Assembly: GCA_964527235.1 (NCBI GenBank)
Contig: CAZGNC010000001.1
Span: 83,220-147,219, forward strand
Direction of reading: 5' to 3'
Origin: an uncultured Candidatus Saccharibacteria bacterium
GTDB taxonomy: Bacteria > Patescibacteriota > Minisyncoccia > Phycocordibacterales > UBA9973
DNA length: 64,000 bases
Below, piece after piece: positions 6,582 through 61,212 of this stretch; the first letter of the stretch is position 1; every line of letters starts with the position of its first letter. The notes beneath the pieces were generated by a model. The model was not told where the DNA came from. It searched no databases and worked only from the letters and a program-made list of their open reading frames with translations. The position numbers and the translations under genes are program-made.

Positions 6582-6595
6582 AAAAGAAAACAAAG

Positions 6596-8298: not shown

Positions 8299-8329
8299 GT
8301 GTTCCTCATCGGGGGTTCTTGTGTGGGAG

Positions 8330-10870: not shown

Positions 10871-10880
10871 AGTAAAAGGT

Positions 10881-10908: not shown

Positions 10909-10985
10909 ATCAATAGCCGGTCTTGTTGTTGTTTTTTCTCTGTTTTCTGTTAGTATAATAAAAGTTCTCTAGAGAATTATTGTAT

Positions 10986-37926: not shown

Positions 37927-40900
37927 ATGAAATTAAGTAACAAAAAATTGAGCGGGAAAAAGGGTCCTAGAATGCTTTTCGGCGTTCAGGTTTTTTTCAT
38001 AACTTTTGCTCTAATTTTAAATTTATTTTTCACAAGTTTTGCTAACGCTACTGCTGGCGTTCCTCTAGTCATAAATTTTCAAGGACGATTGATGGATAAT
38101 GCGGGTGATCTTTTGGGTGGACCTTCTGGAACAGACTATTGTTATAAATTTTCTATTTATGACGCTACCACTGGAGGATCTAAAATTTGGCCGACAGGTT
38201 CTCCTTCGACTATGACCATCGTAACTCGTGAAGGAGTCTTCGATGCAAGTATCGGAGATACTGGTGCTGGAGGCGATGCGTTGGATTTAGCTTTCACTGA
38301 CGACCAGGCATATGTAAATGTTGAAGTTGCAGCTAAGGTGGGTGGCTCATGTACTACAGGTGGTGATGAAGTTTTCGAAACTCTATCACCTCGTCCGAGA
38401 ATTGTTTCTTCGGCTTTCGCTATAAATTCTAAAACTGTTGGAGGATTCACTCCAGCGCAATCCGCAACCAACAACCAGATTCCAGTTCTAACTTCTGGTT
38501 CACTTATACTTAGTCACGCAACTACTGCTGGTATAACCTCGTCAGGCGCAAACCCTCTTGCAGTAGATGCCGGTGCTTCTGGGGTATTAAATATTAACGG
38601 AACTTCAACAGGAGACATTCTAATCGGTGGAGGTTCTGGTTCTACTGGTTGTACGATTACTAACTCCTCTGGAGCATTTGCTTGTTCTGCTGGTATCTCG
38701 GGTACTACTGGCACTTTCTCAGGAGCCATCGCTGCTAACGGAGGCATCACATTCGACGCATCTACCGACACCATCGGAGCATTCACTGCAGCAGGGACGA
38801 TCGACATGAATGCAAACATCATTACCAACATCGGTAATGCTGGCACAGACTTCACAGCAACAGGAGGCTTAACATTAGACGACATACTCACAGTTAATGA
38901 CGACCTTACTGTTGCACTTTCAGGAAATGAGAACGTAGAGATTACTGATGGAGCTACTCCAACAACAGACATATTAAGCATCATAGCTGATGGAGCTTCA
39001 ATCACTAATGATGCTAACGCTTTAGAAATTGACTTTACCACAGGTGACGGAGCTAACGTAACTCAATCAGGATTACAGATTGATCTAGCTTCTGGAGGTA
39101 CTGCTTCTGGAGATACCATCTACGGTATCCATTTAACCATGGATGCAGCCGATGCTTCAACCCAAGACGCAATTTTCGTAAATGGTAACTTCGATACTAT
39201 CCTCGGTGGTACGACTGCTGGCACTTCAATATTCGACTTCACCAACTTCGATGTTACTTCTGCGGGAGCTATTTCTGGACTTAGTTTAGATCTTACAAGT
39301 GCAACACAAGCGACGATTAACCTAACTGATAGTGGTGACACATCTGGTCTTGGTATTATTAACTTTAAAGGAGGAGCTACTACAAGATTTCAAATACTTG
39401 GTAGAAACGATGTAACTACCGGCAATACTTTAACTTTCACCGATGGAACCAATGAACTTGTAAGAATTACCGACAATGGTCGTGTGGGTATCGGATCAAC
39501 TGACCCTGAAGACCTCCTCGAAGTTCAAGGAGCCGAAGCCACAGATTCAGTGTTAGTACTTGATGCTGACGATGGTGATGATGCTGCTGACACATGGTTT
39601 GTAAAATCTGTTGCTACAAGTAACTCTCTTTCAATACTAAATGATGTCACAGAAAGATTCGCTTTAACTTCTGCAGGGAATCTTCAGTTTGATGGAACAC
39701 TTACCTCAGGCTCCGGCAACACCGTCCTCACTCTCTCTACCGGTATGATTGATGCAGATGCACTTACTCTAACAACAGCCGCAGACGGAGGTACAGGTAC
39801 TTCTTCAGGCTCAGGACTTATTGTAAGAAGTGATGGTATAGGATTACTACAAGGTTGTACTGATGGACAAGTGCTGGCATGGGTAGAGTCTACTGATACT
39901 TGGGATTGTGCGACAGCGAGTGGAGGAGTATCTGACGGAGACAAGGGAGATGTAACAGTTTCGGGTTCTGGGGCAACCTGGACTGTGGACTATACTTCTT
40001 CTGATGGAGTAGGTGGCACCTCAACATCTGGGGGGCTCGAACAAGGCACAGGAGGCATAGGATTATTACAGGGTTGTGCTGATAATGAAATTTTGAAATG
40101 GAATGATGGCACTTCTGTCTGGGCGTGTGCTACTGACGCTACATCTGCTGGTGCTGGAGTTTCTACAATTCAAGAAGGAGATAGCACCATAGAAGGTTCA
40201 GCTTCGACTATAGATTTCTTAGCTGCTGATTTTACAGTTACAAGTTCTCCAGCCGGTGAAGCGAACATAGTAATTGATTACACAAACTCAGGAATAACTC
40301 GAAACAGCCAGAACGAAGCAATAACTGGTGACTGGGGCTTTACTTTAGGAGCGGGAGAGGCTATAGATTTTGTTGCTGGGGCTGCGCCAACTGTAGACAT
40401 GGTAGAAATTGGAAATACTGGTCAAGGGACCACTACTACTGGCGTTGATGGATTAGAAATAAATTTCGTAACAGCAGCGGTGGCTGGTTCAGTAGAGAAC
40501 TCTGCTTTAGAGATTATCCTTGATCCTTCAGGAGCCACAGAAGCAGGAGATCAAGTTAATGCTGTTGACATAGCCAACATAACCAATCCAACAGGGCTAA
40601 CTACAGGAGTGAGAGTTGGTAGTGGGTACGATGTCGGTATCGCTTTCAGGGATTCTGCTGGAGATTATGTAGGATTTAAAGCTCCTGCAGATGTAACAAC
40701 AACTACGACTTGGACACTACCAGCTGCGGATGCTGCGGGATGTTTTAAATCTGATGGCTCTGGAAACATGTCTATAAGTTCTTGCGGTGATACTAAGGTT
40801 CAGGTCTATGATTCCAACACTACTTATACAGTTCCCGCTGATGCTCAGATGATAATAATTGAAGCTATCGGTGGAGGAGGATCTGGAGGTGGTGGTGCGC

Positions 40901-43740
40901 TTGGCAACATTGCTCAGGTTGCGGGTGGAGGAGGTGGAGGAGGTGGAGCTTACTACCTTGGAACTTTCGCAGTGAGTGATCTAGGAGGAGCAAACTCAGT
41001 GCTCCAGATTACAAGAGGTGCAGGAGGATCTTCTCCTAACTTAACAGTTGATGGTAACTCAGGAGGAGCGAGCTGTGTTTCTACATCTTCTTCTTGTGGA
41101 GGTACTGTTTATCATCGAGCTTACGGCGGTGGCGGTGGATCGGCTTCAGCTAACAACACTGCAAACGGTGGCGGTGGAGGTGGTGGAGGAGGAGGTGCTA
41201 CAAGTGCTGGTAACAATGCTGCTGCGGCGAACCGTGTCGGAGGTACAGGAGGTCTGCCGGGTCCTGCTGCTGTGGGTATTGCCTCCGATGGACTTGGAGG
41301 AGGAGGAGGAGCGACTGGAGCCGGAACTGGTGCCGATGGAGGTAACTCAGGCTGGGGAGGTGCAGGAGGAGGAGCGTCATCTACAAACGGTGCTGCGACA
41401 ACTGGACGTGGAGGTAACTCAGCGCGTGGAGGTGCGGGTGGCGGAGGTGGTGCTTCCTGTACGATTTCACCTTGTACTACTGCACGTGTCGGGCAGATTG
41501 GAGGATCTGGCGGAAATGGACAATTTGCTGGAGGTGCTGGAGGTACTGCTCCTGGAGGAGATGGATCAGCGGGAACAAATGCCGCTGCGAATAGTGCATT
41601 TGGAGGAGGTGGAGGAGGTGGAGGAGGTTCTAACCAGGCAGCTTCTGGTGTCCCAGGAGATGGAGGTGCAGGAGGTGTTCCTGGCGGAGGAGGTGGAGGA
41701 GGTGGAACAGCGATTAACAACACTGCCTGTGCTGCCAATTGTCAGGGTACAGGAGGAGCCGGAGGTAATGGGCGCGTGAGAATCACTACTCTACGTGGAG
41801 CCGGAGCAGACTTGGCTGAAATGTATGCCACAAATGACGACGAACTTAAGGCGGGTGATGTTGTTGCGTTAGATCCAGAACTTAAGGCGGGTGTTAAAAA
41901 GACAACTAGGGCTTATGATCCAAACGTGATTGGTGTTATTTCCACGGATCCAGGAATTACTATAGGTAACATTGACCAAGATCCTACCGCTCGTCCAGTG
42001 TTGCTTGCCCTAGCGGGTCGTGTGCCGGTGAAAGTAAGTATGGAAAACGGACCTATTAATCCGGGAGATTTATTGACACCTTCTTCTGTGCCTGGAGTTG
42101 CGATGAAGTCTACTAAAGCAGGAATTATTATAGGGCAAGCTCTTACCAAATTTGATCAATCGATAGTAGACCTAGGTGACGCACCACACCCCACAGGATA
42201 TTTGATGATGTTTATAAAAAATAGCTATGCTAATGGAAGTACATTAGCTCAAGTAATACCAGGCCTAGAGTTATCTGACGGTCCGCCAATTGCCACAGAA
42301 GAAGATAATAATATTCCAAGTGAAAATGATGCTGGTGTTGCAAACAGCGAAGCCGATACTGATCCACCAGAATCAGAAGAGGGTTCTACAGAGCTTCCAA
42401 TACCAGAAGTGACTGCGAAAAATGATGTTGGAATTTTTGCTCTTAAATATTTCATGGATAAAAAGGGCGAACTAAGCGAGTCTGTAAGCTTCTCTGAAGT
42501 TATGGCAGACAGAGTTAGTGCTGGACTTGAAGTTATTACTCCTACTCTAACTGCAGACACTGTTCGAACTAACACGATAACCACTTCAACGGGTAAAGAT
42601 ATAAATTTGGTTTTGGGCCCAGATGGTAAGTTTGTAATTGGAGGATCTTCTGAGGTCACTACTAATGAAGACGGCTCAACTTCGACCATAGAGACAGAAC
42701 CACCGGTGATCACCTTTGACTCTCTAGGTAATGCTATATTTGCAGGCAAAATTACCGCTAATGAAATTTCTATAAATTCTGTAGAGGGGATTCAGTCGAT
42801 AATCGCGCAGTTGTCTCAATTAAGCCAAGGTCAAGCTGGACTCACATTAACTGCGTCTGCTCTCGATGCGCTTACTTTAGCCTTAGAAGAGAGTAAGAAT
42901 AAAATTCTTGGTTTAGAGACCACAACCACAGACCTAGCGACTCGACTTGGAGTTATTGAAGTAATGTTGAATGCAAATGCTTTCGATGCACTGACCTCTC
43001 TCACTACTGGCAACTTAGCAGTGTCGGGAGACAGTACTTACACAGGGCAAGCACAATTTGACGGACTTTCATTCTTCAATAACGAAGCGAAGTTTAGTGG
43101 CTTGGTAACTTTTGATCAAGAAGTTGAATTTAAAGCCCCACCATTGTTTAATAAAGATACTGCTGGGTTCGCTCTTATTCATGAGGGAGACAGGAGAGTT
43201 AGCGTGACTTTTGACAAACCTTATGTTATGACTCCTATAGTGAATGTTAGTATGTCGTTTGAGACTACAGACAACATAGATGATGTCTCTGCGATGTCGC
43301 TCTTTGACTCAGATATACGTTTTGTTACTTTAGACAAAAGTAATACAGGGTTCACCATACTTTTGAATCAAAATGCACCTATGAATATTAGGTTTTCGTG
43401 GATAGCATTAGGGGTACGTGATCCTAAGATTATAGAGAGTATTGCTGAAGGTTTAGTTATTAATCCTCCCGAGACAAACGATGACACTATCCCAATTCCA
43501 ATACCTGTACCCAACAATAACCCTGCACCAAGTCCCGAAGTTGTACCATTAGAGAATCCTTCTGGTGGTGTGGAGATACCTCCTACCGGAGACACAACAG
43601 GAGGCGTGATTGAAGACTCTACTTCTACGGAGGAGATTGTACCCGAGCCTGAGCCTGAAGTTGAAGATTCAAGTGAGCCTCCCGCGCCAGAGTCGTCTGC
43701 GGACTCGAGTAGTCCTGATGGTGGAAGCACTGCACCATAG
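37927..43740 (+). CDS. 1937-aa giant Gly/Thr-rich fibrous cell-surface protein (tail-fibre-like adhesin architecture)
   Basis: N-terminal TM/signal. Gly/Thr-rich repeats. Duplicated GLLQGCTDGQVLAWVESTDTWDCAT / GLLQGCADNEILKWNDGTSVWACAT motifs. Poly-Gly tracts. A coiled-coil segment. Pro-rich C-terminus. Confidence 0.6.
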   Translation: MKLSNKKLSGKKGPRMLFGVQVFFITFALILNLFFTSFANATAGVPLVINFQGRLMDNAGDLLGGPSGTDYCYKFSIYDATTGGSKIWPTGSPSTMTIVTREGVFDASIGDTGAGGDALDLAFTDDQAYVNVEVAAKVGGSCTTGGDEVFETLSPRPRIVSSAFAINSKTVGGFTPAQSATNNQIPVLTSGSLILSHATTAGITSSGANPLAVDAGASGVLNINGTSTGDILIGGGSGSTGCTITNSSGAFACSAGISGTTGTFSGAIAANGGITFDASTDTIGAFTAAGTIDMNANIITNIGNAGTDFTATGGLTLDDILTVNDDLTVALSGNENVEITDGATPTTDILSIIADGASITNDANALEIDFTTGDGANVTQSGLQIDLASGGTASGDTIYGIHLTMDAADASTQDAIFVNGNFDTILGGTTAGTSIFDFTNFDVTSAGAISGLSLDLTSATQATINLTDSGDTSGLGIINFKGGATTRFQILGRNDVTTGNTLTFTDGTNELVRITDNGRVGIGSTDPEDLLEVQGAEATDSVLVLDADDGDDAADTWFVKSVATSNSLSILNDVTERFALTSAGNLQFDGTLTSGSGNTVLTLSTGMIDADALTLTTAADGGTGTSSGSGLIVRSDGIGLLQGCTDGQVLAWVESTDTWDCATASGGVSDGDKGDVTVSGSGATWTVDYTSSDGVGGTSTSGGLEQGTGGIGLLQGCADNEILKWNDGTSVWACATDATSAGAGVSTIQEGDSTIEGSASTIDFLAADFTVTSSPAGEANIVIDYTNSGITRNSQNEAITGDWGFTLGAGEAIDFVAGAAPTVDMVEIGNTGQGTTTTGVDGLEINFVTAAVAGSVENSALEIILDPSGATEAGDQVNAVDIANITNPTGLTTGVRVGSGYDVGIAFRDSAGDYVGFKAPADVTTTTTWTLPAADAAGCFKSDGSGNMSISSCGDTKVQVYDSNTTYTVPADAQMIIIEAIGGGGSGGGGALGNIAQVAGGGGGGGGAYYLGTFAVSDLGGANSVLQITRGAGGSSPNLTVDGNSGGASCVSTSSSCGGTVYHRAYGGGGGSASANNTANGGGGGGGGGGATSAGNNAAAANRVGGTGGLPGPAAVGIASDGLGGGGGATGAGTGADGGNSGWGGAGGGASSTNGAATTGRGGNSARGGAGGGGGASCTISPCTTARVGQIGGSGGNGQFAGGAGGTAPGGDGSAGTNAAANSAFGGGGGGGGGSNQAASGVPGDGGAGGVPGGGGGGGGTAINNTACAANCQGTGGAGGNGRVRITTLRGAGADLAEMYATNDDELKAGDVVALDPELKAGVKKTTRAYDPNVIGVISTDPGITIGNIDQDPTARPVLLALAGRVPVKVSMENGPINPGDLLTPSSVPGVAMKSTKAGIIIGQALTKFDQSIVDLGDAPHPTGYLMMFIKNSYANGSTLAQVIPGLELSDGPPIATEEDNNIPSENDAGVANSEADTDPPESEEGSTELPIPEVTAKNDVGIFALKYFMDKKGELSESVSFSEVMADRVSAGLEVITPTLTADTVRTNTITTSTGKDINLVLGPDGKFVIGGSSEVTTNEDGSTSTIETEPPVITFDSLGNAIFAGKITANEISINSVEGIQSIIAQLSQLSQGQAGLTLTASALDALTLALEESKNKILGLETTTTDLATRLGVIEVMLNANAFDALTSLTTGNLAVSGDSTYTGQAQFDGLSFFNNEAKFSGLVTFDQEVEFKAPPLFNKDTAGFALIHEGDRRVSVTFDKPYVMTPIVNVSMSFETTDNIDDVSAMSLFDSDIRFVTLDKSNTGFTILLNQNAPMNIRFSWIALGVRDPKIIESIAEGLVINPPETNDDTIPIPIPVPNNNPAPSPEVVPLENPSGGVEIPPTGDTTGGVIEDSTSTEEIVPEPEPEVEDSSEPPAPESSADSSSPDGGSTAP

Positions 43741-43757
43741 TTGTTAATTAAAATAAT

Positions 43758-44753
43758 ATGGAAGTTACAAAAAATAAAAAAAATAATATTAAATCAGCCA
43801 CTCTGTGTATTATTGTTTTTTTTGTTGGTTTTTTTGTGCATAATTTCTTTCCAAGAGATCATCACTTAGAATGTGAACCCGATAAGTTTAGGTATATCAA
43901 TATTGACTTTGTCTGCAGTAAAAAACCAGTAGTAGAAAAGTATGCATATGCAGCTCTTAAAGGAGAGCTTATGGGCATGATCCAGCAGTCGAAAGAAGAA
44001 AATAAAATTACTTCAGCTTCTATCTACTTTAGAGATTTGCAAGGGGGCCCCACTATGGGAATCGAAGAATATGTTAAGTTTTCACCAGCTAGCTTATTGA
44101 AATTGTCAATGTTGTTGACGTATCTATCTTTAGCTGAAGCAAATCCCCAAATTCTAGAAAGGCAGTTTTCCTTCTCGCGTTTCGAGGAGGAGTGGAAGCA
44201 GTACTATCCAGCTCAGCAACAAATTCAAGAAAATATATCATATAGCATCAACGACATGCTGAATTTTATGATACGTTTTTCTGATAATCGTTCTTATTAT
44301 GCACTGTTGGATTATTTAACTGAATTGAGTCCCAATGAGAGTATTTTACAGAAAACTTTCTTTGACTTAGGAATTGTTGACCCAAAAGATTTTATAGATC
44401 AAACTATCTCCGTGAAGGCCTACGCTTCTATATTTGTGGGTCTATATAATAATGCATTTTTTAGTGAAAAGGAGACTTCAGAAAAGGCTCTCGAAATACT
44501 TGTACGCACAGATTTTAACGAAGGCCTAGTGAAAGGCTTGCCTCCAGGTATGGTGGTGGCGCATAAATTTGGTGAAAGAGATGGGCTTCCAGGAGGGATT
44601 AAGCAGCTGCATGATTGTGGCATTGTTTATTTCCCTGAGAATCCATATCTGTTGTGTGTGATGACGAGAGGTAAAGATTTTCAAAAACTATCAGATACTA
44701 TAGGTATTATTTCTGCGATGGTGTATAAAGAATTTAACGATAGAAGTATCTGA
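43758..44753 (+). CDS. Class-A beta-lactamase-like serine hydrolase (PBP fold) with N-terminal TM anchor
   Basis: S-x-x-K (PASLLK), SDN (FSDNRSY) and KTG-equivalent (HKFGE) motifs in canonical order. Confidence 0.6.
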   Translation: MEVTKNKKNNIKSATLCIIVFFVGFFVHNFFPRDHHLECEPDKFRYINIDFVCSKKPVVEKYAYAALKGELMGMIQQSKEENKITSASIYFRDLQGGPTMGIEEYVKFSPASLLKLSMLLTYLSLAEANPQILERQFSFSRFEEEWKQYYPAQQQIQENISYSINDMLNFMIRFSDNRSYYALLDYLTELSPNESILQKTFFDLGIVDPKDFIDQTISVKAYASIFVGLYNNAFFSEKETSEKALEILVRTDFNEGLVKGLPPGMVVAHKFGERDGLPGGIKQLHDCGIVYFPENPYLLCVMTRGKDFQKLSDTIGIISAMVYKEFNDRSI

Positions 44754-51996: not shown

Positions 51997-52380
51997 ATGA
52001 GGAAATTAAACATAATTCTAGTTCTTCTTATAGTTGTTTTGAGTGCAACAACTTTTTATTTTTACAGGAATAGTCAAATTTCTAAAGGTCCTGGATCAAA
52101 AACTATTGATCAAACTGAAGCCAAAGCCCTATCTGACAAAGTGGGGAAATTAATAATGTTACCTTCGGATGAAATTCCTACAATCGCGACCGTTTCAGAC
52201 CCTGAGGCTCTCAAAGATCAGTCTTTCTTTGTTGATGCAAAGAAGGGTGACAAGGTTCTGATATATTCAAATGCCAAAAAGGCAATCCTTTATGACCCAG
52301 TAGCCAACAAGATCATAACAGTTGCCCCTCTTGATACTAAAAACCAAAATCCAAATTCTACCCAATCCGGAACTCCATAA
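51997..52380 (+). CDS. Small TM-anchored hypothetical protein, paralog 1 of a tandem pair
   Basis: Shares GKLIMLPSDEIPTIATVSDPEALKDQSFFVDAKKGDKVLIYSNAKKAILYDPVANKII with the next gene. Extended -10 TGTTATAAT lies 7 nt before the ATG. Confidence 0.55.
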   Translation: MRKLNIILVLLIVVLSATTFYFYRNSQISKGPGSKTIDQTEAKALSDKVGKLIMLPSDEIPTIATVSDPEALKDQSFFVDAKKGDKVLIYSNAKKAILYDPVANKIITVAPLDTKNQNPNSTQSGTP

Positions 52381-52433
52381 TAATTGACTTTTGTAGTTGT
52401 ATTTCTGAAATAGAACTATGTTATAATATTTAA

Positions 52434-52874
52434 ATGAGAAAGTTTGCCTGGGAGCATCTTCCGTTGATTTTGGTGTTTTTGCTCGTTGTTGTGGGCTCTT
52501 TGACTGAATATTTTTATGAAAATGATGTCGTGTATGAGAACCCCAATTTAATTGCTGAAAGTCAGGTCAGTGTTTATACAGAAAAGATTGGTAGGCTGGT
52601 GTTTCTACCAAAGGATGAGATACCAAGTGTTGCCACAGTGTCTGAGCCAGAACTTCTAAATAATCAGATATTTTTCGCAGAAGCGAAGAAGGGATATATA
52701 GTGCTTATTTATTCAAACGCAAAGAAGGCTATATTGTATGACCCAATAGCAGACAAAATTATTGCCATGGCTTCAGTCAATATAGGTGATGTAGAGCAAT
52801 CAGCTGAAATGTTGCCGGATTTACAGCCTGGGCAATTTAAAGAGTCAGACACGACAACAGAGAATCAATTTTAG
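52434..52874 (+). CDS. Small TM-anchored hypothetical protein, paralog 2
   Basis: GRLVFLPKDEIPSVATVSEPELLNNQIFFAEAKKGYIVLIYSNAKKAILYDPIADKII. Confidence 0.55.
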   Translation: MRKFAWEHLPLILVFLLVVVGSLTEYFYENDVVYENPNLIAESQVSVYTEKIGRLVFLPKDEIPSVATVSEPELLNNQIFFAEAKKGYIVLIYSNAKKAILYDPIADKIIAMASVNIGDVEQSAEMLPDLQPGQFKESDTTTENQF

Positions 52875-52890: not shown

Positions 52891-53967
52891 ATGCGATTTT
52901 TAGATCTTAAAAAATATTTTCCAGAAACCATACTCATCGTATTTTTTCTATTGTTCGGTGTTGCTTACTTTGCAAGTGCAGAGACTCTGACTAGTACGAA
53001 TTTTATTATCAAAGATCCAGTGATAGGCACAGGAGGGGGCTACGGATCTTCTGCTAGTTTTCAATTGCTTTCTGAGGGTGATAAAGTTTTGACCGGAGCA
53101 GGCTCATCTACTTCTTTTATTGGGCATTATGGATTTTTATATTATCCATTCATTACTGAAGCTGTGCTTACCGCCGTTGCCAATGGTTCTGATGGCGACC
53201 TGACTTGGACTGCCTCTGATGCTGGACAAGGCTGGACTGTATCAGGCTACAACGTGGGTAAGGCGACAGCACCTGGCGGTCCTTATACTTACATTGATGT
53301 CGGCAATGTGTTGCTTTATAGTTATGACAATCTTGCACCCGGGGATTACTGCTTTGTGGTGCAGACTTATGATGTGTTTGATTATGTGATTGCTACATCT
53401 AATGAAGACTGTATAACGATATTACCCACCATTGTTTTCGACTTAGACACTGAGGCTGGCGGTGGCACAGGAGAATCTTCTACTCCATATAGTGTAGGTT
53501 TGGGAGTTATCTCGACCTCAGACACCCGTGTCTCTGGAACTACCGATGGCATACAGATGATTGTCGCTGAAGGAGAGACAAATGCTACGAGTGGCGTGGT
53601 AGTCACTGTGCGTAATACGAATGGTGCAAATGGTCTGGCTTCCACCTCAGTGCCTGCTGATGATATCGATAGTGCTGATGGCACCATGGCTGATGGCACA
53701 GAGAACTATGGTTTATGTGTGGCGACTGCAGGACTTACTGGGTTTGCTCGATCTTCACCTTACAATTCTGGTACTTGTGCGACCGATTCCGAAACCAATG
53801 ACATTCAGGGTTTGACTTCAGTGGGGGAGAATATATTAAATTCTGCGACGGTACCGATGGTGGGAGGTCATGCTGAGATTATAGTCAATGGCGCCATTAG
53901 CAACATCACTCCTGCTCATTCGGATTACACCGACACCTTAACTTTCATTGCGACCAGCACATTTTAG
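52891..53967 (+). CDS. Secreted cell-surface protein, paralog A (divergent N-terminal half, conserved C-terminal ~190 aa)
   Basis: Signal peptide ...AYFASAET. The C-terminal region is ~80% identical at protein level to paralog B (SSTPYSVGLGVISTSDTRVSGTTD...HSDYTDTLTFIATSTF). Confidence 0.6.
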   Translation: MRFLDLKKYFPETILIVFFLLFGVAYFASAETLTSTNFIIKDPVIGTGGGYGSSASFQLLSEGDKVLTGAGSSTSFIGHYGFLYYPFITEAVLTAVANGSDGDLTWTASDAGQGWTVSGYNVGKATAPGGPYTYIDVGNVLLYSYDNLAPGDYCFVVQTYDVFDYVIATSNEDCITILPTIVFDLDTEAGGGTGESSTPYSVGLGVISTSDTRVSGTTDGIQMIVAEGETNATSGVVVTVRNTNGANGLASTSVPADDIDSADGTMADGTENYGLCVATAGLTGFARSSPYNSGTCATDSETNDIQGLTSVGENILNSATVPMVGGHAEIIVNGAISNITPAHSDYTDTLTFIATSTF

Positions 53968-54067
53968 TAGTTATCCACAGAGGCATTTTATACTGTGAAA
54001 GTATTATATAGTATAATTAAGGCATAATTTATTAACAAAATTTTAATTTATTAATTAATATAAAAAT

Positions 54068-55225
54068 ATGATAAAGAAATTAGGTAGTTTGTCTTTCGCC
54101 AAGTTCGTTAGCGGTTTCACTATATTGGCTATACTCACAGTTATGGCTGCTCCACAGCCAGCACAAGCTGCGTCAGTCACTAGTGCCAAGGCTACATTTG
54201 GTAGACTGAAGGCAAGTACTGCCAATGAATACGGCACCATTGAATTCGCTACTCCCACAGGCATACAGACTGGAGGTGCTGATACCATAAGCTTTACTTT
54301 CAGTGCTGACTTTACTCTAGCTGCTGAGTCCGCAAACAACTTCGACATAGAGCTTGGAGACAGTGCTACTTGTTCTTCTGCTGTTTATACCGATGAAGTT
54401 GTTGCGTTGACTGCTTCGGCTACAGATTGGGGAGTGGATGTGACTGGCAATGTGATAACTCTTTCTCCTGAAACTGACCAGACTCTTACAGCAGGATTCT
54501 GTATGAGACTTGTTTGGGGTACAGCTGCTACAACTGGAGCTACTGGTTCTGCGAGTACTATAACTAACGGAGCTGCAGACGATGATGACACGATAGTTAT
54601 CGGTGGAGTTTTTGGTGATTCAGGAACTATTACAGTAGACATAATCGACGATGATCAAGTTACAGTTACTGCAACAGTAAACCAGAGTATTACTTTCGAC
54701 CTAGACACCTCTGTGGCTGATGGCGAAACATCTACTCCTTACTCTGTTGCTTTGGGCACAATAACAGTAACCGATACAAGAGTTTCTGGAAGCACTGATT
54801 CTGTTAATATGATTATTGCTGAGTTAGACACAAACGCTTCTGGCGGTGCTGTGGTGACTGTAAGAAATGCTAATGGTGCCAACGGCCTAGCTTCTACTTC
54901 AGTGCCAGCAGACAACATAGGTAGTGCAGATGGTACCATAGCAGATGGCACTGAGAACTATGGTCTGTGTGTTATGTCAGTAACGCAAACTGCTGGTACT
55001 CTAGCAAAAGCGTCTCCATATAACGCTGGAACATGTGCAACTAACTCTGAGACCAACGACATACAAGGCTTAACTACTACTGGAGAAAATATTTTAAACT
55101 CTTCTTCTGCTCCTATCGCAGGAGGACATGCTGAGATCGCAGTTAACGCTGCTATCTCTGGGGTTACAGTAGCGCATTCTGATTACACTGACACTCTGAC
55201 TTTCGTTGCGACCGGAACTTTCTAG
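54068..55225 (+). CDS. Secreted cell-surface protein, paralog B
   Basis: Signal peptide ...AAPQPAQAAS. C-terminal TSTPYSVALGTITVTDTRVSGSTD...HSDYTDTLTFVATGTF. The DNA is only ~70% identical to paralog A, so the duplication is old. Confidence 0.6.
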   Translation: MIKKLGSLSFAKFVSGFTILAILTVMAAPQPAQAASVTSAKATFGRLKASTANEYGTIEFATPTGIQTGGADTISFTFSADFTLAAESANNFDIELGDSATCSSAVYTDEVVALTASATDWGVDVTGNVITLSPETDQTLTAGFCMRLVWGTAATTGATGSASTITNGAADDDDTIVIGGVFGDSGTITVDIIDDDQVTVTATVNQSITFDLDTSVADGETSTPYSVALGTITVTDTRVSGSTDSVNMIIAELDTNASGGAVVTVRNANGANGLASTSVPADNIGSADGTIADGTENYGLCVMSVTQTAGTLAKASPYNAGTCATNSETNDIQGLTTTGENILNSSSAPIAGGHAEIAVNAAISGVTVAHSDYTDTLTFVATGTF

Positions 55226-55249
55226 TACCAATAACTTAATTTTTGGATA

Positions 55250-56281
55250 ATGAAAAACCACTCAAATTGCAGAGTATTGCTAACACTTTTCACGATAATA
55301 ACACTCGGCATTTGTTTGTATCCGGGAAACGCTGATGCGATAACCATAACTCCAACTCGCTTTGAGGTGAGTGGCAACCCAGGAGAAACTCTAAGCTATG
55401 AGATACTACTTATAAACGAAACTGAATCCTCAGAAACTTTTTACCCTTCGTTTTCAAACTTTGAAGCTCAAGGGGACACTGGTAGCCCTGCTTTCACTGA
55501 GCCTACTGATGATCTAGGAACTTGGATGTCGGCCGACATGTCGTCGGTGTATCTTGCACCAAGACAGCAGAAGATAGTTCCATTTAAAATTCAAATACCT
55601 AAAGATGCAGAACCAGGAGGGCATTTTGCTGTGATATTCTGGGGTACTTCTCCTCCCAATGGAGCTCCTGGTGTCGCAGTTGGTGCCAAGACTGGAGTTC
55701 TTGTCCTTCTTTCTGTGAATGGAGATGTTCGAGAGGAGGCGGGGTTGTTGGATTTCAATACTAAAGATAAAAAGTTTTTCTATAAGACCTTACCAGTTTC
55801 CTTTGAATATAGATTGAGAAATGACGGAGGAGACAGAATAAAACCAAATGGTGTTATAAAAGTAAGAAACACTTTCTTCTTGCCATCTGAGAAATTAGAT
55901 GCAAACCCTGTACAGGGAAACGTCTTACCAAGCAGTACACGAAAGTTCAAGATTGATTGGGTTGAATATGAAAGAGCTCTAGATTATGTGCCACCTACTG
56001 GAGTATTCAAGAAATTCTGGAGTGAGACAGTCTATCAATGGAGAAACTTCGCAGTTGGCTTGTATTCAGCAAATCTAAACATAGAATACGGTACGCAAGG
56101 CGCTAAAGCTAAAAGCACATCTTTCTTCTTTGTCTTTCCTTGGCAACTTGTATCAGTGTTGTTACTAATATTTATTATAGTCTTCTGGGGTGGTAAGAAA
56201 ATTATCAGACGCTACAATAGATTTATAATCGAGAAGGCAAGGGCTGGTATGCATTTACCGTCCGATTCTTCTCATGTCTAA
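55250..56281 (+). CDS. Cell-surface protein with signal peptide and C-terminal TM anchor plus basic tail (DUF916-like architecture)
   Basis: SP ...CLYPGNADA. C-terminal VLLLIFIIVFWGGKKIIRRYNRF. Confidence 0.4.
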   Translation: MKNHSNCRVLLTLFTIITLGICLYPGNADAITITPTRFEVSGNPGETLSYEILLINETESSETFYPSFSNFEAQGDTGSPAFTEPTDDLGTWMSADMSSVYLAPRQQKIVPFKIQIPKDAEPGGHFAVIFWGTSPPNGAPGVAVGAKTGVLVLLSVNGDVREEAGLLDFNTKDKKFFYKTLPVSFEYRLRNDGGDRIKPNGVIKVRNTFFLPSEKLDANPVQGNVLPSSTRKFKIDWVEYERALDYVPPTGVFKKFWSETVYQWRNFAVGLYSANLNIEYGTQGAKAKSTSFFFVFPWQLVSVLLLIFIIVFWGGKKIIRRYNRFIIEKARAGMHLPSDSSHV

Positions 56282-57167
56282 TTCTTTTAAATTTTATCTT
56301 GTTTTTTCTTTAGCTCTATTTGTTTCTTGTTTTTGCGTTAGAGTTGTTTTGGCACAAACTGGACCAGTTACTGAGAATGTGAATGTAACTGCCAGGGTTG
56401 GCGAGGAAGTAGTAGTCACTCCTGGAGGCCCTAGCGGGGGTAGTGTGGCTTCGCCAGCTACTGCGGTGAGATTTTCTGGACAGGCTTACCCTAACGCAAG
56501 TGTTAAGCTTTTAAAGTGGGGTCAAGAACAGGTGGAAGTGTTTGCAGATCAAAACGGAAATTTCTCTATTACGTTGCCAGAATATTATGATGCTAGTGTG
56601 CTTTACTCGCTTACCGCTGAGGATATATTCGGGAACAGGTCTCTAATAATCAACTATCCTCTGGTTGTTAAGGTTGGCTTTGTTACGCATCTAAGTGGTG
56701 TGCGATTTGCTCCAACAATAGTGACAGATAAAACTGAAGTTAAATCCGGAGACTATTTAACGGTTAGCGGCTATGCATTACCAAGTCAGAATATGGAAAT
56801 ATTAGTAGATGGGGCAGCGAAGCGTAATTTTTCCTTAGTTTCAAATTCTGATGGAACTTACAAGATAGTCTTACCACTCTCTCTCTTGCCGAAAGGTGAA
56901 TACACAGTTTCTATACACTATATAAACGATGATCGATTTAGTAAATTAGTAAAATTTATAATAGGTGAGTTGAATATTCTTAATGCTGACATATTACTAA
57001 ACATTCCGGGGGATTGTAATACTGATAAAATAATAAACTTAGTTGATTTCTCAGTGCTAGCATTCTGGTATGGTAAACCCAATCCGCCTGTGTGTGTTGA
57101 TACGAATGCAGACAAGAAAATCGACTTGATAGACTTCTCAATATTAGCTTTTTATTGGACTGGATAA
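56274..57167 (+). CDS. Secreted protein with C-terminal dockerin-like domain
   Basis: Signal peptide. Two tandem Ca-binding dockerin segments GDCNTDKIINLVDFSVLAFWY and DTNADKKIDLIDFSILAFYW, with D/N at positions 1, 3, 5, 9 and 12 plus the following aromatic/Leu pattern. Confidence 0.7.
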   Translation: MSNSFKFYLVFSLALFVSCFCVRVVLAQTGPVTENVNVTARVGEEVVVTPGGPSGGSVASPATAVRFSGQAYPNASVKLLKWGQEQVEVFADQNGNFSITLPEYYDASVLYSLTAEDIFGNRSLIINYPLVVKVGFVTHLSGVRFAPTIVTDKTEVKSGDYLTVSGYALPSQNMEILVDGAAKRNFSLVSNSDGTYKIVLPLSLLPKGEYTVSIHYINDDRFSKLVKFIIGELNILNADILLNIPGDCNTDKIINLVDFSVLAFWYGKPNPPVCVDTNADKKIDLIDFSILAFYWTG

Positions 57168-57168: not shown

Positions 57169-58053
57169 ATGAATAAATATTTACGATACTTTTTTATAGG
57201 AATTATTTTTTTTCTCAGTCCTCTAGCCACCATACTAGCAGCGGAGGTTTCTTTCGATGCACCGAAGCAAGTATACTTAGGTGAAGTTTTTAATGTTCCG
57301 GTAAATGTGGACAGTGGTGGGGTAATGATTAATTCTGTTGATTTGTCTATAGATTTCAATGAAGATATGATTGTTTTTTCAGGCTATAAGAGTGATGACG
57401 GAATTGTGAAGCTATGGGTTAAATCCCCAACTGACGAGAATGGTGTGCTCAAAATGAGTGGGATTATTCCTGGTGGAGTGTCAGGCCTGTATGATCCTAA
57501 AGAGAGTGGATTAAGAGCCGTGCCAGTGGTAAGTTTAATTTTCACTGCAAATAAGACTGGCAATGCCGAATTTTATTTTACAGATTCTAAAGTTTTCAAA
57601 CATGATGGTAAGGGTACTGAGATTGAACATCAACGATCTAGCGCTTCAGTCACGATTGTAGATGATCCAGATTCTGATCCTAGTATCGTTAAAGATATAA
57701 ATATTACTGATACTGATAAACCAGAGCCCTTCGAGATGGTTTTCCTAAATTCAGCATTCTTTGGTCGCACACCTTCTATGATTATTTTTGAAACTACTGA
57801 CAAAACTTCTGGGGTTAAGGAGTTTCGCATGAAGGCTGTAGGTGATACATGGTTTACGGTAAAAAGTCCGTATCCTGTGTCTAAAGGTCTTTTCCCTAGG
57901 AGTGTGGTTGTTAGGGCTTATGATTTTTATGATAATTTTCAAGAAAGTTCTGTGAGAGTGCCAGGCATCATGGGTTCGAAGTTCTTCTGGGGCTTTGTTG
58001 TCTGGTTGTTGTTTTGTTTGGGAGTATATAAAGTGTTAAAATATAAATCATGA
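57169..58053 (+). CDS. Cohesin-like domain protein with C-terminal TM anchor
   Basis: SP, then AEVSFDAPKQVYLGEVFNVPVNVDSGGVMINSVDLSIDFNEDMIVFSGY...GVLKMSGII, the cohesin beta-sandwich pattern. C-terminal TM FFWGFVVWLLFCLGVY. Confidence 0.6.
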   Translation: MNKYLRYFFIGIIFFLSPLATILAAEVSFDAPKQVYLGEVFNVPVNVDSGGVMINSVDLSIDFNEDMIVFSGYKSDDGIVKLWVKSPTDENGVLKMSGIIPGGVSGLYDPKESGLRAVPVVSLIFTANKTGNAEFYFTDSKVFKHDGKGTEIEHQRSSASVTIVDDPDSDPSIVKDINITDTDKPEPFEMVFLNSAFFGRTPSMIIFETTDKTSGVKEFRMKAVGDTWFTVKSPYPVSKGLFPRSVVVRAYDFYDNFQESSVRVPGIMGSKFFWGFVVWLLFCLGVYKVLKYKS

Positions 58054-59168
58054 GAGCTATTTTAAATTCCAAGGTCTTCAGTATATTGCTGTTTGGCTTC
58101 CTAATAGCTAATGTGGCTCACGCACAAACTCCTAGCGTATTTTTCAGCACACCGCCTAAGCAGATTCACGAGGGTGAGAGGCTGACTGTTGATGTAAAAA
58201 TTCAATCACCAGGTAAGTCCGTAAACGCTATTTCTGGAGTTATTTCGTATCCAGAAAGTTTGGTGAATGTCGCTTCAATTTCAAAAGACAAGAGCATCAT
58301 CAATATTTGGACCCGTGAACCGAAAGCCAGTAAGGGCCGAATTGTGTTTGAGGGTGTTGCGCTCAATCCAGGATTCGAAGGTTACAATGGTTTGGTTTTT
58401 AGGATTACCTTTGAAGCAAAACGCACAGGCACTGTGTTCCTCAAGATTACCGAAGGGGCGGTGTTGGCGAACGATGGTCGGGGTACGAATGTTCTAGCTA
58501 GTTTGGGTTCTACTAACTTCAATATTATCCAAGGTCTTACTCCTGCACCAACTATTGCCGAAGTAATAACCCCAGAAGGTGGCACCAAGCTAACCGCCTT
58601 GCCTGTCATCATTGAATATTCACCTTTAGTTAATACTAAAGAAGGACTCTTTGTAAAAGGTAAAGGCGAGCCGAATGCTCTAACCAAGATTGTTTTCAAA
58701 GATGTCTCAGTCAAGTCTATAGGCGAGCAATTAATTGCAATGCTTCAGACTAAGAAGAAAAAGCTTAATGAAGTTTTGGTTCAAAACGATGAGATTGGCG
58801 GATTCAATTATATTAGCCCTAAGAACTTAGTTGCAGGGGTGTATAATGCAACGCCGTTCTTGGTTGAAGAGAGTACCAACACAGAGAAGCCTGGTTTTGG
58901 TGTTCAGCTTCTGGTTGACGATAGTAAGATAGTGAAGTGGCTTGTGGTGTTGATAAATGTATTAGGATTGTTGATTCCGGTTGTCGCATTGATCGTTGTT
59001 ATATACTTTATTCCTTGGTATTCCTTTAGACGAATGCGGGTGATTAAGAAGAAGCTTGGGTTAGAAGAGGAACAGCTAGACCTCACCGAGCATCAGCTAG
59101 AACGGCAAGACAAAAGTCAGGATAAGCCTCTTATTCCACCTTTCATACCACCCACAGGTACGCAATAA
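58050..59168 (+). CDS. Cohesin-like domain protein with C-terminal TM anchor and coiled-coil or Pro-rich tail
   Basis: SP, then PPKQIHEGERLTVDVKIQSPGKSVNAISGVISYPESLVNVASI...GLVFRITFEAKRTGTVFLKITEGAVL. C-terminal TM WLVVLINVLGLLIPVVALIVVIYFIPWY. Confidence 0.6.
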   Translation: MRAILNSKVFSILLFGFLIANVAHAQTPSVFFSTPPKQIHEGERLTVDVKIQSPGKSVNAISGVISYPESLVNVASISKDKSIINIWTREPKASKGRIVFEGVALNPGFEGYNGLVFRITFEAKRTGTVFLKITEGAVLANDGRGTNVLASLGSTNFNIIQGLTPAPTIAEVITPEGGTKLTALPVIIEYSPLVNTKEGLFVKGKGEPNALTKIVFKDVSVKSIGEQLIAMLQTKKKKLNEVLVQNDEIGGFNYISPKNLVAGVYNATPFLVEESTNTEKPGFGVQLLVDDSKIVKWLVVLINVLGLLIPVVALIVVIYFIPWYSFRRMRVIKKKLGLEEEQLDLTEHQLERQDKSQDKPLIPPFIPPTGTQ

Positions 59169-59211: not shown

Positions 59212-60306
59212 ATGAGGATGTCTAGGTATAATTTTATACTCGCTTTAGTTCTATTTTTGGCTGCTTTTCCAGTATTTGGACAGACAAGTGATTTACTTTC
59301 CCCTGAAGAAGAATTATGGTTAAAGTCTCGCAACAATACCATAGTAGTTTATCCCGAGAAAAACAATCCTCCTTTTTCTTACACTAGTGCCAGTGGCAAC
59401 ATTCAAGGTCTAGCCATTGATTTCATTGAACTAATCGCTGAAAAAATAGATGCTAAGGTTGTTTATTTATTGCCACAGTCTCGCAGCCAAGTTTTAAATG
59501 ATTTCAAACAAGGCAAGGGTGATGTTGTGATCGGTGTTATGGACACAGAGAGTCGAGGCGCAGAACTTATTTTTTCTGATTCTTTTGTCACCGTGCCGAC
59601 TGTGATAGTAGTTAGGAAAGATTTTGAAAAAAGAAAAGCTCTAACTCTCAATGATTTTAACGGGAAGAGAGTTGCGATGGTTGATGACTCTGCTTTGGAG
59701 GAATATGTGAAGAAAAATTATCCCAGAGTTGTTATAGAAGACGTTACCGATGACGAGGTGAGTTTACAGCAGGTCATACTTGGTGAAGTCGATGCTGCAG
59801 TGATGGATATAGCATCTCTATCTTTTTATCTTTCAAAGCAAGTTCTTAGTAGTGTAAAAGTAGTAGGGAATACTGGGCTTGATTACAAGCCTGCCATGGC
59901 GCTTCTCCCCAACAACACCATTCTGCAATCAATATTAGAGAAGGGCATGACTCAGATTAGCACCACTGATCGCAGTGTTTTAAATGACAAATGGATTATT
60001 ACACCAGGAGAACCCGAGACAGAAAGCCCCGTCTTAGATATCTTTCAGGGACATGCTGATATTATAGTACCTTATGCTTTGCTGGTTTTAGTATTAGTTA
60101 TTGTTGCTTTCAGGCTTGTGTCTCATAGGCGCCATGATTTAGAGCATTTACATAAAGTAGATACAGTGGTAGATCTTAAAAAAGAAGTCTCTGAGCTAGA
60201 GAGCACTAACGACATATTGGCTGCTGAGATGAGATTGATAAAAGAAAAAGAAGATAAACTTCAAGAGAAAATAAACTCTATAGCCCAAGAACACACACAA
60301 CCATAG
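59212..60306 (+). CDS. Periplasmic substrate-binding (SBP_bac_3-like) domain fused to a TM helix and C-terminal coiled coil, with no output domain
   Basis: SP. SBP-like NTIVVYPEKNNPPFSY...GLAIDFIELIAEKI. TM IIVPYALLVLVLVIVAF. Coiled coil to the C-terminus. Confidence 0.55.
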   Translation: MRMSRYNFILALVLFLAAFPVFGQTSDLLSPEEELWLKSRNNTIVVYPEKNNPPFSYTSASGNIQGLAIDFIELIAEKIDAKVVYLLPQSRSQVLNDFKQGKGDVVIGVMDTESRGAELIFSDSFVTVPTVIVVRKDFEKRKALTLNDFNGKRVAMVDDSALEEYVKKNYPRVVIEDVTDDEVSLQQVILGEVDAAVMDIASLSFYLSKQVLSSVKVVGNTGLDYKPAMALLPNNTILQSILEKGMTQISTTDRSVLNDKWIITPGEPETESPVLDIFQGHADIIVPYALLVLVLVIVAFRLVSHRRHDLEHLHKVDTVVDLKKEVSELESTNDILAAEMRLIKEKEDKLQEKINSIAQEHTQP

Positions 60307-60405: not shown

Positions 60406-61212
60406 ATGGTGAGTCAAAAAAAATCTTCAAATTTTAATTCAAAAAACACTTCTAAAAAAAGTAATGTTTTGCGCGTTCAAGTAGATGGAATTTACAAGAA
60501 AAGAAAATTTACTGAAGTAAAAGACGAAAAAGTTGTATGCAATTTAAGTAGTATAGATAGTGATAAAGTTGAAGAAATTAATTCAGTAGATGATAACAGG
60601 CGTCTATTTCTGAAAGCTGCTGGTGTTGCTGGTTTGGGCTTGGCGGCAGGGGCTTTATTTCCAAAAGGTGCTGAGGCGTACGTTGCTGGTAGTACGCCGA
60701 CTTCAAATGTCGTGGGGTCTAAGGACGCTTCAAACGTCCGAATAAATCCAGCCAAAGAAGATGGCAACTTAGCAACTATTGCTGGGAAAGACTTTGCCAC
60801 ACAGACAACCCTGGCGGCGATGAAAGCCAAGACGGATTTACTGACTTTCGATGGTAGTAATAATCTTCTAACTGCGTCTAGTGGTGGAGCTTCATCTGTT
60901 AAAATAAAAGATACTTCGAATACCGAAGTAAACCCTGCCACAGAAGATAGCATGATGTTGCTTAGAAGAATTCTAAGACAAATGGACTCATTGGCTGTCG
61001 TAGATTCTGCGCAAAGACAGAAAGTCACAGTTGAAGGTGCAACTATTACAAGTGGAACCATTACGACAGTAACCACAGTAACCACAGTTTCTACTCTAAC
61101 TTCAGCAACTAACTTAGTTGCACTCGGAGGTGTGGATGGTAGGTATTTATATATTGATACTGCACGAAATGCTTCAGCGAATGGTATTAGAGGTAACTTA
61201 TTATTTTCATAA
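60406..61212 (+). CDS. Hypothetical Thr-rich protein with an internal twin-arginine-like motif (NRRLFLKAAGVAGLGLAAGALF)
   Basis: RRLFLK plus a hydrophobic stretch at aa ~64-90. Ends at a TAA that is in frame with, and 3 nt before, the next large ORF. Confidence 0.45.
   Translation: MVSQKKSSNFNSKNTSKKSNVLRVQVDGIYKKRKFTEVKDEKVVCNLSSIDSDKVEEINSVDDNRRLFLKAAGVAGLGLAAGALFPKGAEAYVAGSTPTSNVVGSKDASNVRINPAKEDGNLATIAGKDFATQTTLAAMKAKTDLLTFDGSNNLLTASSGGASSVKIKDTSNTEVNPATEDSMMLLRRILRQMDSLAVVDSAQRQKVTVEGATITSGTITTVTTVTTVSTLTSATNLVALGGVDGRYLYIDTARNASANGIRGNLLFS

Follow-up and report, generated by a model that had tools for sequence, protein, structure and literature searches.

A previously unannotated operon of Paceibacteria that most likely encodes a divergent strand-exchange pilus of the Pam type

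The strand-exchange Pam pilus was published in 2026 from other ultra-small bacteria of the CPR (Troman et al. 2026, bioRxiv 10.64898/2026.03.03.709456). In Ca. Mycosynbacter amalyticus, the system comprises the pilins PamA, PamB, PamE and PamT, the chaperones PamC and PamD, and PamR, an RbmA-like terminator with a TM anchor, with the donated linker and the groove of the C-terminal domain (CTD) being the most conserved regions of the pilins, which were reported mainly in Saccharimonadia and Microgenomatia and not in Paceibacteria (bioRxiv 10.64898/2026.03.03.709456). A second system of interest here is the WxL/Csc cluster of Lactobacillales and Bacillales, which pairs WxL proteins (PF13731) with a WxL-interacting protein (WxLIP) made of DUF916 (PF06030), DUF3324 (PF11797) and a transmembrane (TM) segment.

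The window, meaning the whole analysed stretch of 64,000 nucleotides, carries a gene cluster whose core, u1-u2-gA-gB-gC-gD-gE-gF-gG, probably encodes a Pam-type, usher-less pilus assembled by chaperone-assisted donor-strand exchange on the surface of a monoderm member of the Paceibacteria (CPR). Within it, gA and gB are most likely pilus subunits and gC their chaperone, forming a divergent Paceibacteria version of the Pam pilus. We regard the operon as a divergent, previously unannotated example of a recently described kind of system. A first-pass annotation of the same DNA had called gA, gB and gC, and all three are found on the plus strand with the coordinates and lengths given below.

51997-52380, plus strand: u1, 127 aa, small protein with an N-terminal hydrophobic helix
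52434-52874, plus strand: u2, 146 aa, tandem paralogue of u1, N-terminal hydrophobic helix
52891-53967, plus strand: gA, 358 aa, module protein without the linker, proposed as tip or terminal subunit in a PamT-like position
gA aa 1-30, plus strand: signal peptide
52981-53148, plus strand: gA aa 31-86, conserved segment TSTNFIIxDP..GGGYG..SF..YGFLYY
53149-53415, plus strand: gA aa 87-175, insert of about 90 aa
53416-53964, plus strand: gA aa 176-358, C-terminal domain
54068-55225, plus strand: gB, 385 aa, proposed shaft pilin
gB aa 1-34, plus strand: signal peptide
54170-54640, plus strand: gB aa 35-191, N-terminal beta-sandwich
54641-54688, plus strand: gB aa 192-207, linker of 16 residues with proposed donor strand IDDDQVTVTATVNQSI
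54689-55222, plus strand: gB aa 208-385, C-terminal domain; Cys301 and Cys323 nearly invariant; C-terminal motif DYTDTLTFVATGTF
55250-56281, plus strand: gC, 343 aa, membrane-anchored two-Ig-domain protein, WxLIP-like, proposed PamC/PamD-like chaperone
gC aa 1-30, plus strand: signal peptide
55340-55729, plus strand: gC aa 31-160, domain 1; includes a conserved hairpin (about aa 62-83) modelled at low confidence
55730-56140, plus strand: gC aa 161-297, domain 2
56141-56209, plus strand: gC aa ~298-320, TM helix, followed by a basic tail
56274-57167, plus strand: gD, secreted; Ig-like (Big_6) domains, predicted dockerin at the C-terminus
57169-58053, plus strand: gE, signal peptide, cohesin-like beta domain, C-terminal TM anchor
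58050-59168, plus strand: gF, gE paralogue with signal peptide, cohesin-like beta domain and C-terminal TM anchor
59212-60306, plus strand: gG, SBP_bac_3 domain (PF00497, E 2.6e-17), C-terminal TM segment and coiled-coil tail

The relationship between gA and gB is confined to one domain. By BLASTP, gA 176-358 and gB 203-385 are the only segments that align (about 185 aa, 69% identity, 81% positives, E 5e-83), and a MAFFT codon alignment gives 72% amino acid and 66% nucleotide identity. The conserved C-terminal block noted at first pass is therefore real, while its figure of ~80% identity corresponds to the positives and that of ~70% for the DNA becomes 66%. The proposal of an old duplication under purifying selection is borne out by a pS of 0.79 (saturated) and a pN of 0.19. 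The N-terminal 175 aa of gA and 202 aa of gB are indeed unrelated, giving no BLAST match and 19% identity when forced into alignment. They had also been called hypervariable, whereas they represent two discrete types, each about as conserved among orthologues as the C-terminal domain (N-terminal part vs domain, 0.67-0.68 vs 0.67 in gA-type and 0.64 vs 0.67 in gB-type proteins), although heads do vary at the level of the whole family. Full-length orthologues of both types, at 47-98% identity, are found across Patescibacteria, to which all named homologues belong.

The C-terminal domain defines a family of 734 cluster representatives, with proteins of 170-2955 aa. It lies at the extreme C-terminus in 223 of 224 proteins, and likewise in all of the best 150, behind very diverse heads that include FG-GAP or RCC1 propellers in proteins of up to ~2900 aa, and short forms consist of little else. 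A low-complexity region, which had been considered at first pass, is not what this block is: residues 201-385 of gB are modelled by AF2 (monomer) as a folded beta domain with pLDDT 90-98, and the family alignment contains invariant and nearly invariant positions, Cys301 and Cys323 (gB numbering) being among the latter; exactly two Cys are present in 163 of 226 domains. In our view, a strand-accepting domain of a Pam-type pilin describes it better than the docking or anchoring module previously suggested. Pilus subunits had been among the options offered, and this option is supported by the layout of gB and by the profile matches described below.

In the AF2 model of gB (pLDDT 92), beta strands extend across aa 40-191 and a beta domain spans aa 208-385; between them, aa 192-207 are unpaired in DSSP and coincide with a pLDDT dip to 75 in this monomer model. 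Conservation peaks in the linker (0.83, vs 0.66 in the N-terminal domain and 0.70 in the C-terminal domain), and a linker that is the highest-conserved segment is also a property of Pam pilins. The two further share the order of N-terminal beta-sandwich, single linker and C-terminal Ig-like domain, as judged for gB from the AF2 monomer model, and paired Cys in the C-terminal domain are common to Pam pilins and this family. The linker motif, DDDQVTVTA, recurs throughout the family and in the majority of the large-head proteins, FG-GAP and RCC1 propeller examples included, with few of these lacking it. It is absent from gA and from an insert-less form of ~265 aa that holds the position of gA in other loci. 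A linker-less class of this kind may correspond to the position of PamT, a subunit that has no linker and is little more than a C-terminal domain; its members, however, carry the additional conserved 55-aa TSTNF..YGFLYY segment, and gA has the extra insert as well.

Comparison with the Pam proteins was made through NCBIfam profiles and the published description. Neither gA nor gB matches any NCBIfam model at E<0.1, and the proteins of the window have remained unannotated because they are too divergent for these models. Among 96 family representatives, 6 match the CPR_Pam_pilin_C model (NF058581) at E<0.01, the best at 4.6e-8, all of them under its curated cut-off of 55 bits. In P0343, which is 63% identical to the C-terminal domain of gB, residues 115-268 match model positions 8-148 of 148 (E 5.5e-6, 26.5 bits), and one family member matches the PamT model (CPR_pilus_PamT, NF058579) at E 3e-4. 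At the level of sequence, these sub-threshold NF058581 matches indicate a remote relationship rather than membership by the curated rule.

The arrangement of the genes is likewise conserved. Denoting linker-less and linker-bearing module genes as L- and L+, loci with two classifiable module genes read "L- L+" in 24 cases, "L+ L+" in 2 and "L+ L+ L+" in 2, with no case of "L+ L-"; in the window, the L- gene gA precedes the L+ gene gB. Of the 54 related loci that extend 700 nt or more downstream, 51 have a gC-like gene after the last module gene, which upholds the earlier suggestion of a linkage to the downstream anchored gene. The conserved order is thus linker-less gene, linker-bearing gene (1-3 copies) and gC, and the order gD-gE-gF is also kept in related loci. 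As in the Pam operon, a protein of the PapD/FimC-like chaperone type, anchored by a TM helix at its C-terminus, is encoded without an usher: no usher domain was detected in the 10 cluster proteins scanned, and the conserved cluster contains no usher candidate. CPR-restricted, Sec-exported subunits are a further common trait. The cluster differs in having one chaperone-like gene, vs two in M. amalyticus, in adding dockerin, cohesin-like, solute-binding and u1/u2 genes that are absent from the published pam operon, and in its taxonomic range, with the family found in Paceibacteria/Parcubacteria-type MAGs. Among the genes scanned, none beside the cluster encodes an ATP synthase.

The third gene, gC, had been described as an anchored protein of the DUF916 kind; its C-terminal TM helix and basic tail are confirmed, and its Pfam signal for DUF916 (PF06030) is weak, reaching 13.5 of the 27.3 bits required. 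Among gC homologues, 55 of 61 match PF06030 at E<1 (best 8.5e-5), below the family threshold, and hhalign against DUF916 gives a probability of 79-89% with P of 1.6e-5 to 2.6e-6, vs P>=0.016 for controls. These profile comparisons suggest a remote homology between gC domain 1 and DUF916. For domain 2, comparison with the WxLIP HBD (DUF3324) gives P 0.07 in hhalign, PF11797 is absent among gC homologues in the Pfam search, and the NQIDKxxxYFDLK motif is undetectable in gC, where the aligned position reads TRFEVSGNPGE. Structurally, gC is matched best by a WxLIP (9i1y, 202 residues aligned) and not by a pilus chaperone. While gC also resembles the WxLIP of Gram-positive bacteria, we favour a PapD-like chaperone anchored in the membrane over one more surface protein as its interpretation. 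It is conceivable, and we offer this tentatively, that the membrane-anchored PapD-like chaperones of Pam type in CPR and the Firmicute WxLIPs (DUF916-DUF3324-TM) are homologous. In that case, WxL/Csc clusters and CPR pili would represent two lineages of a single usher-less system of monoderms that assembles by strand complementation, with the Paceibacteria family of the window as a bridging form in which a cohesin-dockerin module has been recruited as well.

The resemblance of gC to WxLIP raises the alternative of a WxL/Csc-type surface display, in which the C-terminal domain would anchor non-covalently to gC and/or peptidoglycan and display the heads without polymerising, a reading that we regard as unlikely. 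Apart from the DUF916 similarity of gC and its homologues, this reading draws on the cluster layout, which is that of published WxL clusters: at least two proteins, short and long, with a strictly C-terminal domain of ~160-190 aa (~185 aa here), followed by a protein with a signal peptide, two Ig domains and a C-terminal TM helix (PMC10599100; PMC9772566). In Firmicute loci, too, the WxL genes lie upstream of WxLIP, and the C-terminal motif Y..TLTF.A of the window family is similar to Y..tLTW.L of WxL. The partners of gC are, however, not WxL proteins. The check for WxL homology proposed at first pass came out negative, and by none of the sequence tests is the C-terminal domain a WxL domain: PF13731 is absent from 78 family members (E<=1), hhalign probabilities are 0.13% for the small (77) and 0.54% for the large (22) verified WxL domains, and the domain contains neither the first WxL motif nor other Trp-x-Leu motifs, with a mean of 0.12 Trp per domain. 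Family members match the Pam pilin model instead, and display alone leaves unexplained both the conserved unpaired linker, which is of donor type, and the strict order from linker-less to linker-bearing genes. The cluster further departs from WxL clusters in lacking an LPXTG protein and in belonging to another phylum, and gC departs from WxLIP in that a DUF3324 domain is undetectable by sequence. The display and Pam readings overlap, in that WxL-WxLIP binding is itself predicted in the literature as beta-strand insertion, as we propose for gC.

The genes downstream of gC and the position of the C-terminal domain invite two other explanations. A cellulosome-like cohesin-dockerin complex for polymer binding or degradation, with gA and gB as accessory binding subunits and gC as scaffold, seems improbable, even though gD-gF are tightly packed with gA-gC and the cohesin-dockerin genes announced at first pass are supported at family level. 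Dockerin_1 and Big_6 each occur in 20 of 23 gD-family members (best dockerin 3.8e-7; 18.7 bits vs a cut-off of 22.9 in the gD of the window), and 8 of 46 gE/gF-family members match Cohesin PF00963 (best E 2.2e-16), with no match in the gE and gF of the window themselves, which are 25% identical. Yet no cluster gene carries a glycoside hydrolase or other enzyme domain, gA and gB lack dockerins and resemble cohesins at the generic level of a beta-sandwich, and the shared C-terminal domain, the linker and the chaperone-like gC would go unexplained. We see gE and gF as candidate membrane anchors, serving either as partners of the gD dockerin or as PamR-like terminators. Still less probable, to the point of being very doubtful, is a C-terminal domain that acts as a sorting or processing signal for attachment to the cell surface, in the manner of sortase signals or the CTD of T9SS substrates, and that would be cleaved off or become covalently attached, gC being the processing factor. 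Its near-invariable terminal position on such diverse heads would fit, as would a stray match of one family member to the T9SS Por_Secre_tail (E 0.0074), but a strongly conserved, pilin-like domain of ~185 aa is far beyond the known size of sorting signals, and family forms that are approximately the domain alone would make no sense for a cleaved tag. Moreover, the cluster contains no LPXTG motif, sortase gene or protease, and Patescibacteria are monoderm, with no T9SS component among the cluster genes scanned.

For the Pam-type pilus, we propose the following assembly route, patterned on that of PamA/B/T/C/D in Ca. Mycosynbacter amalyticus. After export of gA and gB via Sec, the C-terminal domain would present an incomplete Ig-like fold, whose groove would be capped by a strand of gC. 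A point against such a fold is the very high confidence that AF2 gives to the domain as a monomer. The gB linker would then displace gC and complete the C-terminal domain in the subunit before it, producing a gB shaft polymer, with gA predicted at the distal end because it could only accept a strand. Large heads of family members in other genomes would presumably serve in binding, the few linker-less ones being putative tip-type subunits like gA. The TM-anchored cohesin-like gE/gF and the dockerin protein gD may anchor or decorate the pilus base, which is the least supported step of the scheme.

Fold searches with gB retrieved adhesins, Ig-like proteins and pilins, the latter of donor-strand and other kinds (CfaB, CsuA/B, the TLP-1b fibril, Spb1 and RrgB); no Pam entry was among the PDB matches. 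The classical and archaic chaperone-usher pili of Gram-negative bacteria (Pap/Fim, CFA/I, Csu) share with the locus the two-domain PapD-like chaperone fold of gC, an Ig-like pilin domain similar to gB at the fold level (CfaB, CsuA/B), the combination of adhesin head and pilin domain in presumptive tip subunits, and the proposed logic of donor-strand exchange. They differ in that the cell proposed here has no outer membrane and the cluster no usher gene, gC is membrane-anchored, the subunits have two domains, and the proposed donor strand of gB is an internal interdomain linker rather than an N-terminal extension. The TLP-1a/b fibrils from pond water (CryoSeek, PMC11494351) and archaeal bundling pili consist, unlike gB, of single-domain subunits that donate an N-terminal strand, and they have no sequence relationship to the window, different operons and no TM-anchored chaperone. 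Sortase-dependent Gram-positive pili are set apart by the LPXTG signal and sortase gene that the window cluster lacks. A filament from the gA/gB family has yet to be observed.

Few uncultured bacteria are as abundant as the Paceibacteria (Parcubacteria). If our reading is true, the Pam pilus system reaches well beyond Saccharimonadia and Microgenomatia, through a family of which no cluster representative is annotated, and tip-type subunits would be predicted among linker-less proteins such as gA, a few of them with very large N-terminal regions. The resemblance between gC and WxLIP additionally suggests strand complementation as a mechanistic hypothesis that could be extended to WxL clusters in enterococci, listeriae and lactobacilli.

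At the edges of the cluster, gG follows gF in 10 of the 24 loci with enough downstream sequence and often closes the conserved cluster. At the other end, u1 and u2, which have no Pfam or NCBIfam match, are 53% identical to each other, and in many related loci the module genes are preceded by u-like ORFs.

The two paralogous secreted proteins gA and gB, together with the membrane-anchored protein gC encoded next, are specified by three open reading frames (ORFs) arranged head to tail:

52891-53967, forward strand: gA, an ORF of 358 aa
54068-55225, forward strand: gB, an ORF of 385 aa
55250-56281, forward strand: gC, an ORF of 343 aa

Based on domain layout, conservation pattern, fold neighbours, remote model matches and synteny, the region is best read as a divergent, unannotated operon of Paceibacteria for a pilus of the Pam type, the donor-strand-exchange pilus of CPR bacteria. 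Within it, gB would serve as the shaft pilin, gA as a strand-accepting terminal subunit, and gC as a membrane-anchored chaperone.

Alignable sequence between gA and gB is confined to the C-terminal ~185 residues (BLASTP, 69% identity, 81% positives, E 5e-83), the N-terminal 175 residues of gA and 202 residues of gB being mutually unrelated. In a codon alignment, the shared part is 72% identical in amino acids and 66% in nucleotides, with synonymous differences saturated (pS 0.79) and pN at 0.19; these values indicate an old duplication and purifying selection on the shared domain, as the first-pass annotation had proposed. Its description of the N-termini as hypervariable does not hold, since in full-length orthologues of both gene types (47-98% identity) the N-terminal parts are conserved equally with the shared domain. 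The named homologues all come from Patescibacteria metagenome-assembled genomes (Paceibacterota, Parcubacteria, Nomurabacteria, Yanofskybacteria, Minisyncoccia) and all carry the annotation "hypothetical protein", and gA and gB themselves gave no Pfam or NCBIfam match.

Searching 1.84 billion cluster representatives by profile recovered 734 proteins with the shared domain at E<=1e-3, the shortest of 170 aa and the longest of 2955 aa. The domain ends the protein in 223 of 224 homologues and in all of the best 150 of the 734 representatives. Among large-head members, the Pfam scan placed propellers (FG-GAP, RCC1) or Ig-like domains in a few long proteins; its matches included Big_7 and, weakly, BslA, and most members were matchless. 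The AlphaFold model of gB has a pLDDT of 92 overall and of 90-98 over residues 201-385, so the shared block is a folded beta domain. This high confidence, along with invariant and nearly invariant residues, two nearly invariant cysteines among the latter, rules out the low-complexity artefact that had been raised as a concern for the block.

Just ahead of this domain, the monomer model leaves gB residues 192-207 (IDDDQVTVTATVNQSI) unpaired, and pLDDT falls to 75 there; yet they form the most conserved segment of the protein (conservation 0.83; N-terminal domain 0.66, C-terminal domain 0.70). The linker motif recurs throughout the family, most large-head proteins included, and is absent from gA and the ~265-aa short forms, which instead bear a conserved 55-aa "TSTNF..GGGYG..YGFLYY" segment. 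Wherever genes for subunits without (L-) and with (L+) the gB-type linker co-occur in related loci, L- precedes L+: the order "L- L+" was counted 24 times and the reverse never, alongside two cases each of "L+ L+" and "L+ L+ L+". A rule dividing the two subunit classes is part of what the analysis adds.

The Pam system was described in a 2026 preprint on Ca. Mycosynbacter amalyticus: after the signal peptide, the pilins PamA and PamB have a beta-sandwich at the N-terminus and a truncated Ig-like domain at the C-terminus, joined by a single linker strand, and their cysteines are paired (10.64898/2026.03.03.709456). Each linker completes the C-terminal domain of an adjacent subunit, linker and groove being the most conserved parts, and the tip subunit PamT has no linker (10.64898/2026.03.03.709456). 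Two PapD/FimC-like chaperones, PamC and PamD, each carry a TM helix at the C-terminus, and the system has no usher (10.64898/2026.03.03.709456). Compared through the preprint's description and model matches below the cut-off, gB has the layout of PamA and PamB; by analogy, the shared domain would present an open groove, and strand exchange would join successive subunits. In an NCBIfam scan, family members matched NF058581 (CPR_Pam_pilin_C) and NF058579 (CPR_pilus_PamT), with Pam matches at E<0.01 in 6 of 96 representatives (best E 4.6e-8), all of them below the 55-bit cut-off. P0343, a short protein of the family that shares 63% identity with the gB domain, matched NF058581 over profile positions 8-148 of 148, reaching its C-terminus (E 5.5e-6). 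Paceibacteria, WxL and DUF916 all go unmentioned in the preprint (10.64898/2026.03.03.709456), and the present locus would extend the Pam system phylogenetically.

Synteny across 78 metagenome loci and four contigs follows a common order: a small upstream gene (u), an L- gene, one to three L+ genes, gC, gD, gE, gF and often gG. In 51 of the 54 loci with enough sequence, the last module gene has a gC-like gene after it, which bears out the expected linkage to a downstream anchored protein. The reported succession of cohesin-dockerin genes likewise stands at the level of families, with a dockerin in 20 of 23 gD-family members and a Cohesin model match in 8 of 46 members of the TM-anchored gE/gF family; gG encodes an SBP_bac_3 protein that carries a TM segment. 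The published pam operon lacks the cohesin, dockerin and solute-binding genes present here, and any part that the products of gD to gG play in the proposed pilus is putative. Scanning the cluster for promoters and terminators gave counts no better than shuffled sequence, so the operon structure is drawn from gene spacing alone. Upstream, u1 and u2 (window 51997-52874) are tandem paralogues of 127 and 146 aa, 53% identical, each with an N-terminal hydrophobic helix and no family match; many related loci likewise have a u-like ORF right before their module genes. In variants at L114, L129, L137 and L148, either gC-like genes number two or three, or a gC copy adjoins ~1130-aa proteins whose N-terminus is of the gB type, and chaperone and subunit copy numbers therefore differ among genomes.

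The alternative is a display complex like that of the Gram-positive WxL surface proteins and their interacting protein, WxLIP. The cluster grammar agrees with published WxL clusters (PMC10599100, PMC9772566), and the gC side offers further likeness. In the gC model (pLDDT 86), a signal peptide is followed by two Ig-like domains and then by a long helix at the C-terminus, with a basic tail, and weak matches to PF06030 (DUF916) occur in 55 of 61 gC homologues. Against WxLIPs from 68 Firmicute loci, fetched by the published WxLIP motif and with WxL and WxLIP genes verified against Pfam, the gC family reached an hhalign probability of 88.6% (P 2.6e-6; controls P>=0.016), restricted to domain 1, domain 2 being non-significant. 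Within domain 1, the hairpin at aa 62-83 (SFSNFEAQGDTGSPAF; window 55433-55498) is the most conserved part, has the lowest model confidence (pLDDT 62) and aligns to the conserved "A.TN.NG..Y" region of DUF916; this hairpin is a candidate strand for folding onto a partner.

The shared domain itself speaks against the WxL alternative. The suggested profile search for WxL homology gave hhalign probabilities of 0.13% against 77 small and 0.54% against 22 large WxL domains, HMM searches in both directions stayed at noise level, and Trp motifs are absent; by sequence, the domain is not a WxL domain. Only the last 13 columns aligned, non-significantly, and the sole likeness is a C-terminal strand motif, Y..TLTF.A in the family and Y..tLTW.L in WxL. 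A supposed resemblance of a "V.D.R hairpin" to the first WxL motif was dropped (11 of 226 by regular expression), and PDB sequence searches with the gB profile, the gC profile and a genuine WxL protein yielded structures of neither a WxL domain nor a Pam pilin. We consider a WxL-like display complex unlikely, though not fully exclusive of the pilus reading, because WxLIP, too, is predicted to act by strand insertion, in its case into WxL. Under the Pam-type reading, the connection between the gC chaperone and WxLIP/DUF916 is a further part of the added value, and we found no mention of it in the literature searched, nor anything relevant on WxL or DUF916 in CPR or on dockerin in Parcubacteria.

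Directly after the cluster, a 268-aa ORF (window 60406-61212), overlapped by a long antisense ORF, has a twin-arginine signal match (TIGR01409, E 3.8e-4) and is rich in Thr and Val towards its C-terminus. At window 37927-44753, a Beta-lactamase2-family gene comes after a 1937-aa ORF that has no Pfam match and is GC-rich in its middle (0.51 at 40-42 kb); in the related locus L004 (1-8562), a 2800-aa ORF and a Beta-lactamase2 gene lie immediately upstream of the pilus-like cluster. Window 6000-10000 contains no rRNA and has a GC content of 0.55, against about 0.40 elsewhere, with long ORFs overlapping on both strands; of those on the minus strand, one encodes a protein of 585 aa rich in Pro and the other a protein of 418 aa that weakly matches the OmpA family. 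RNA genes in the window include:

4161-4517, reverse strand: RNase P RNA, bacterial class A (112 bits)
10797-11058, divergent genes: tRNA-Ala(TGC) and tRNA-Asn(GTT)
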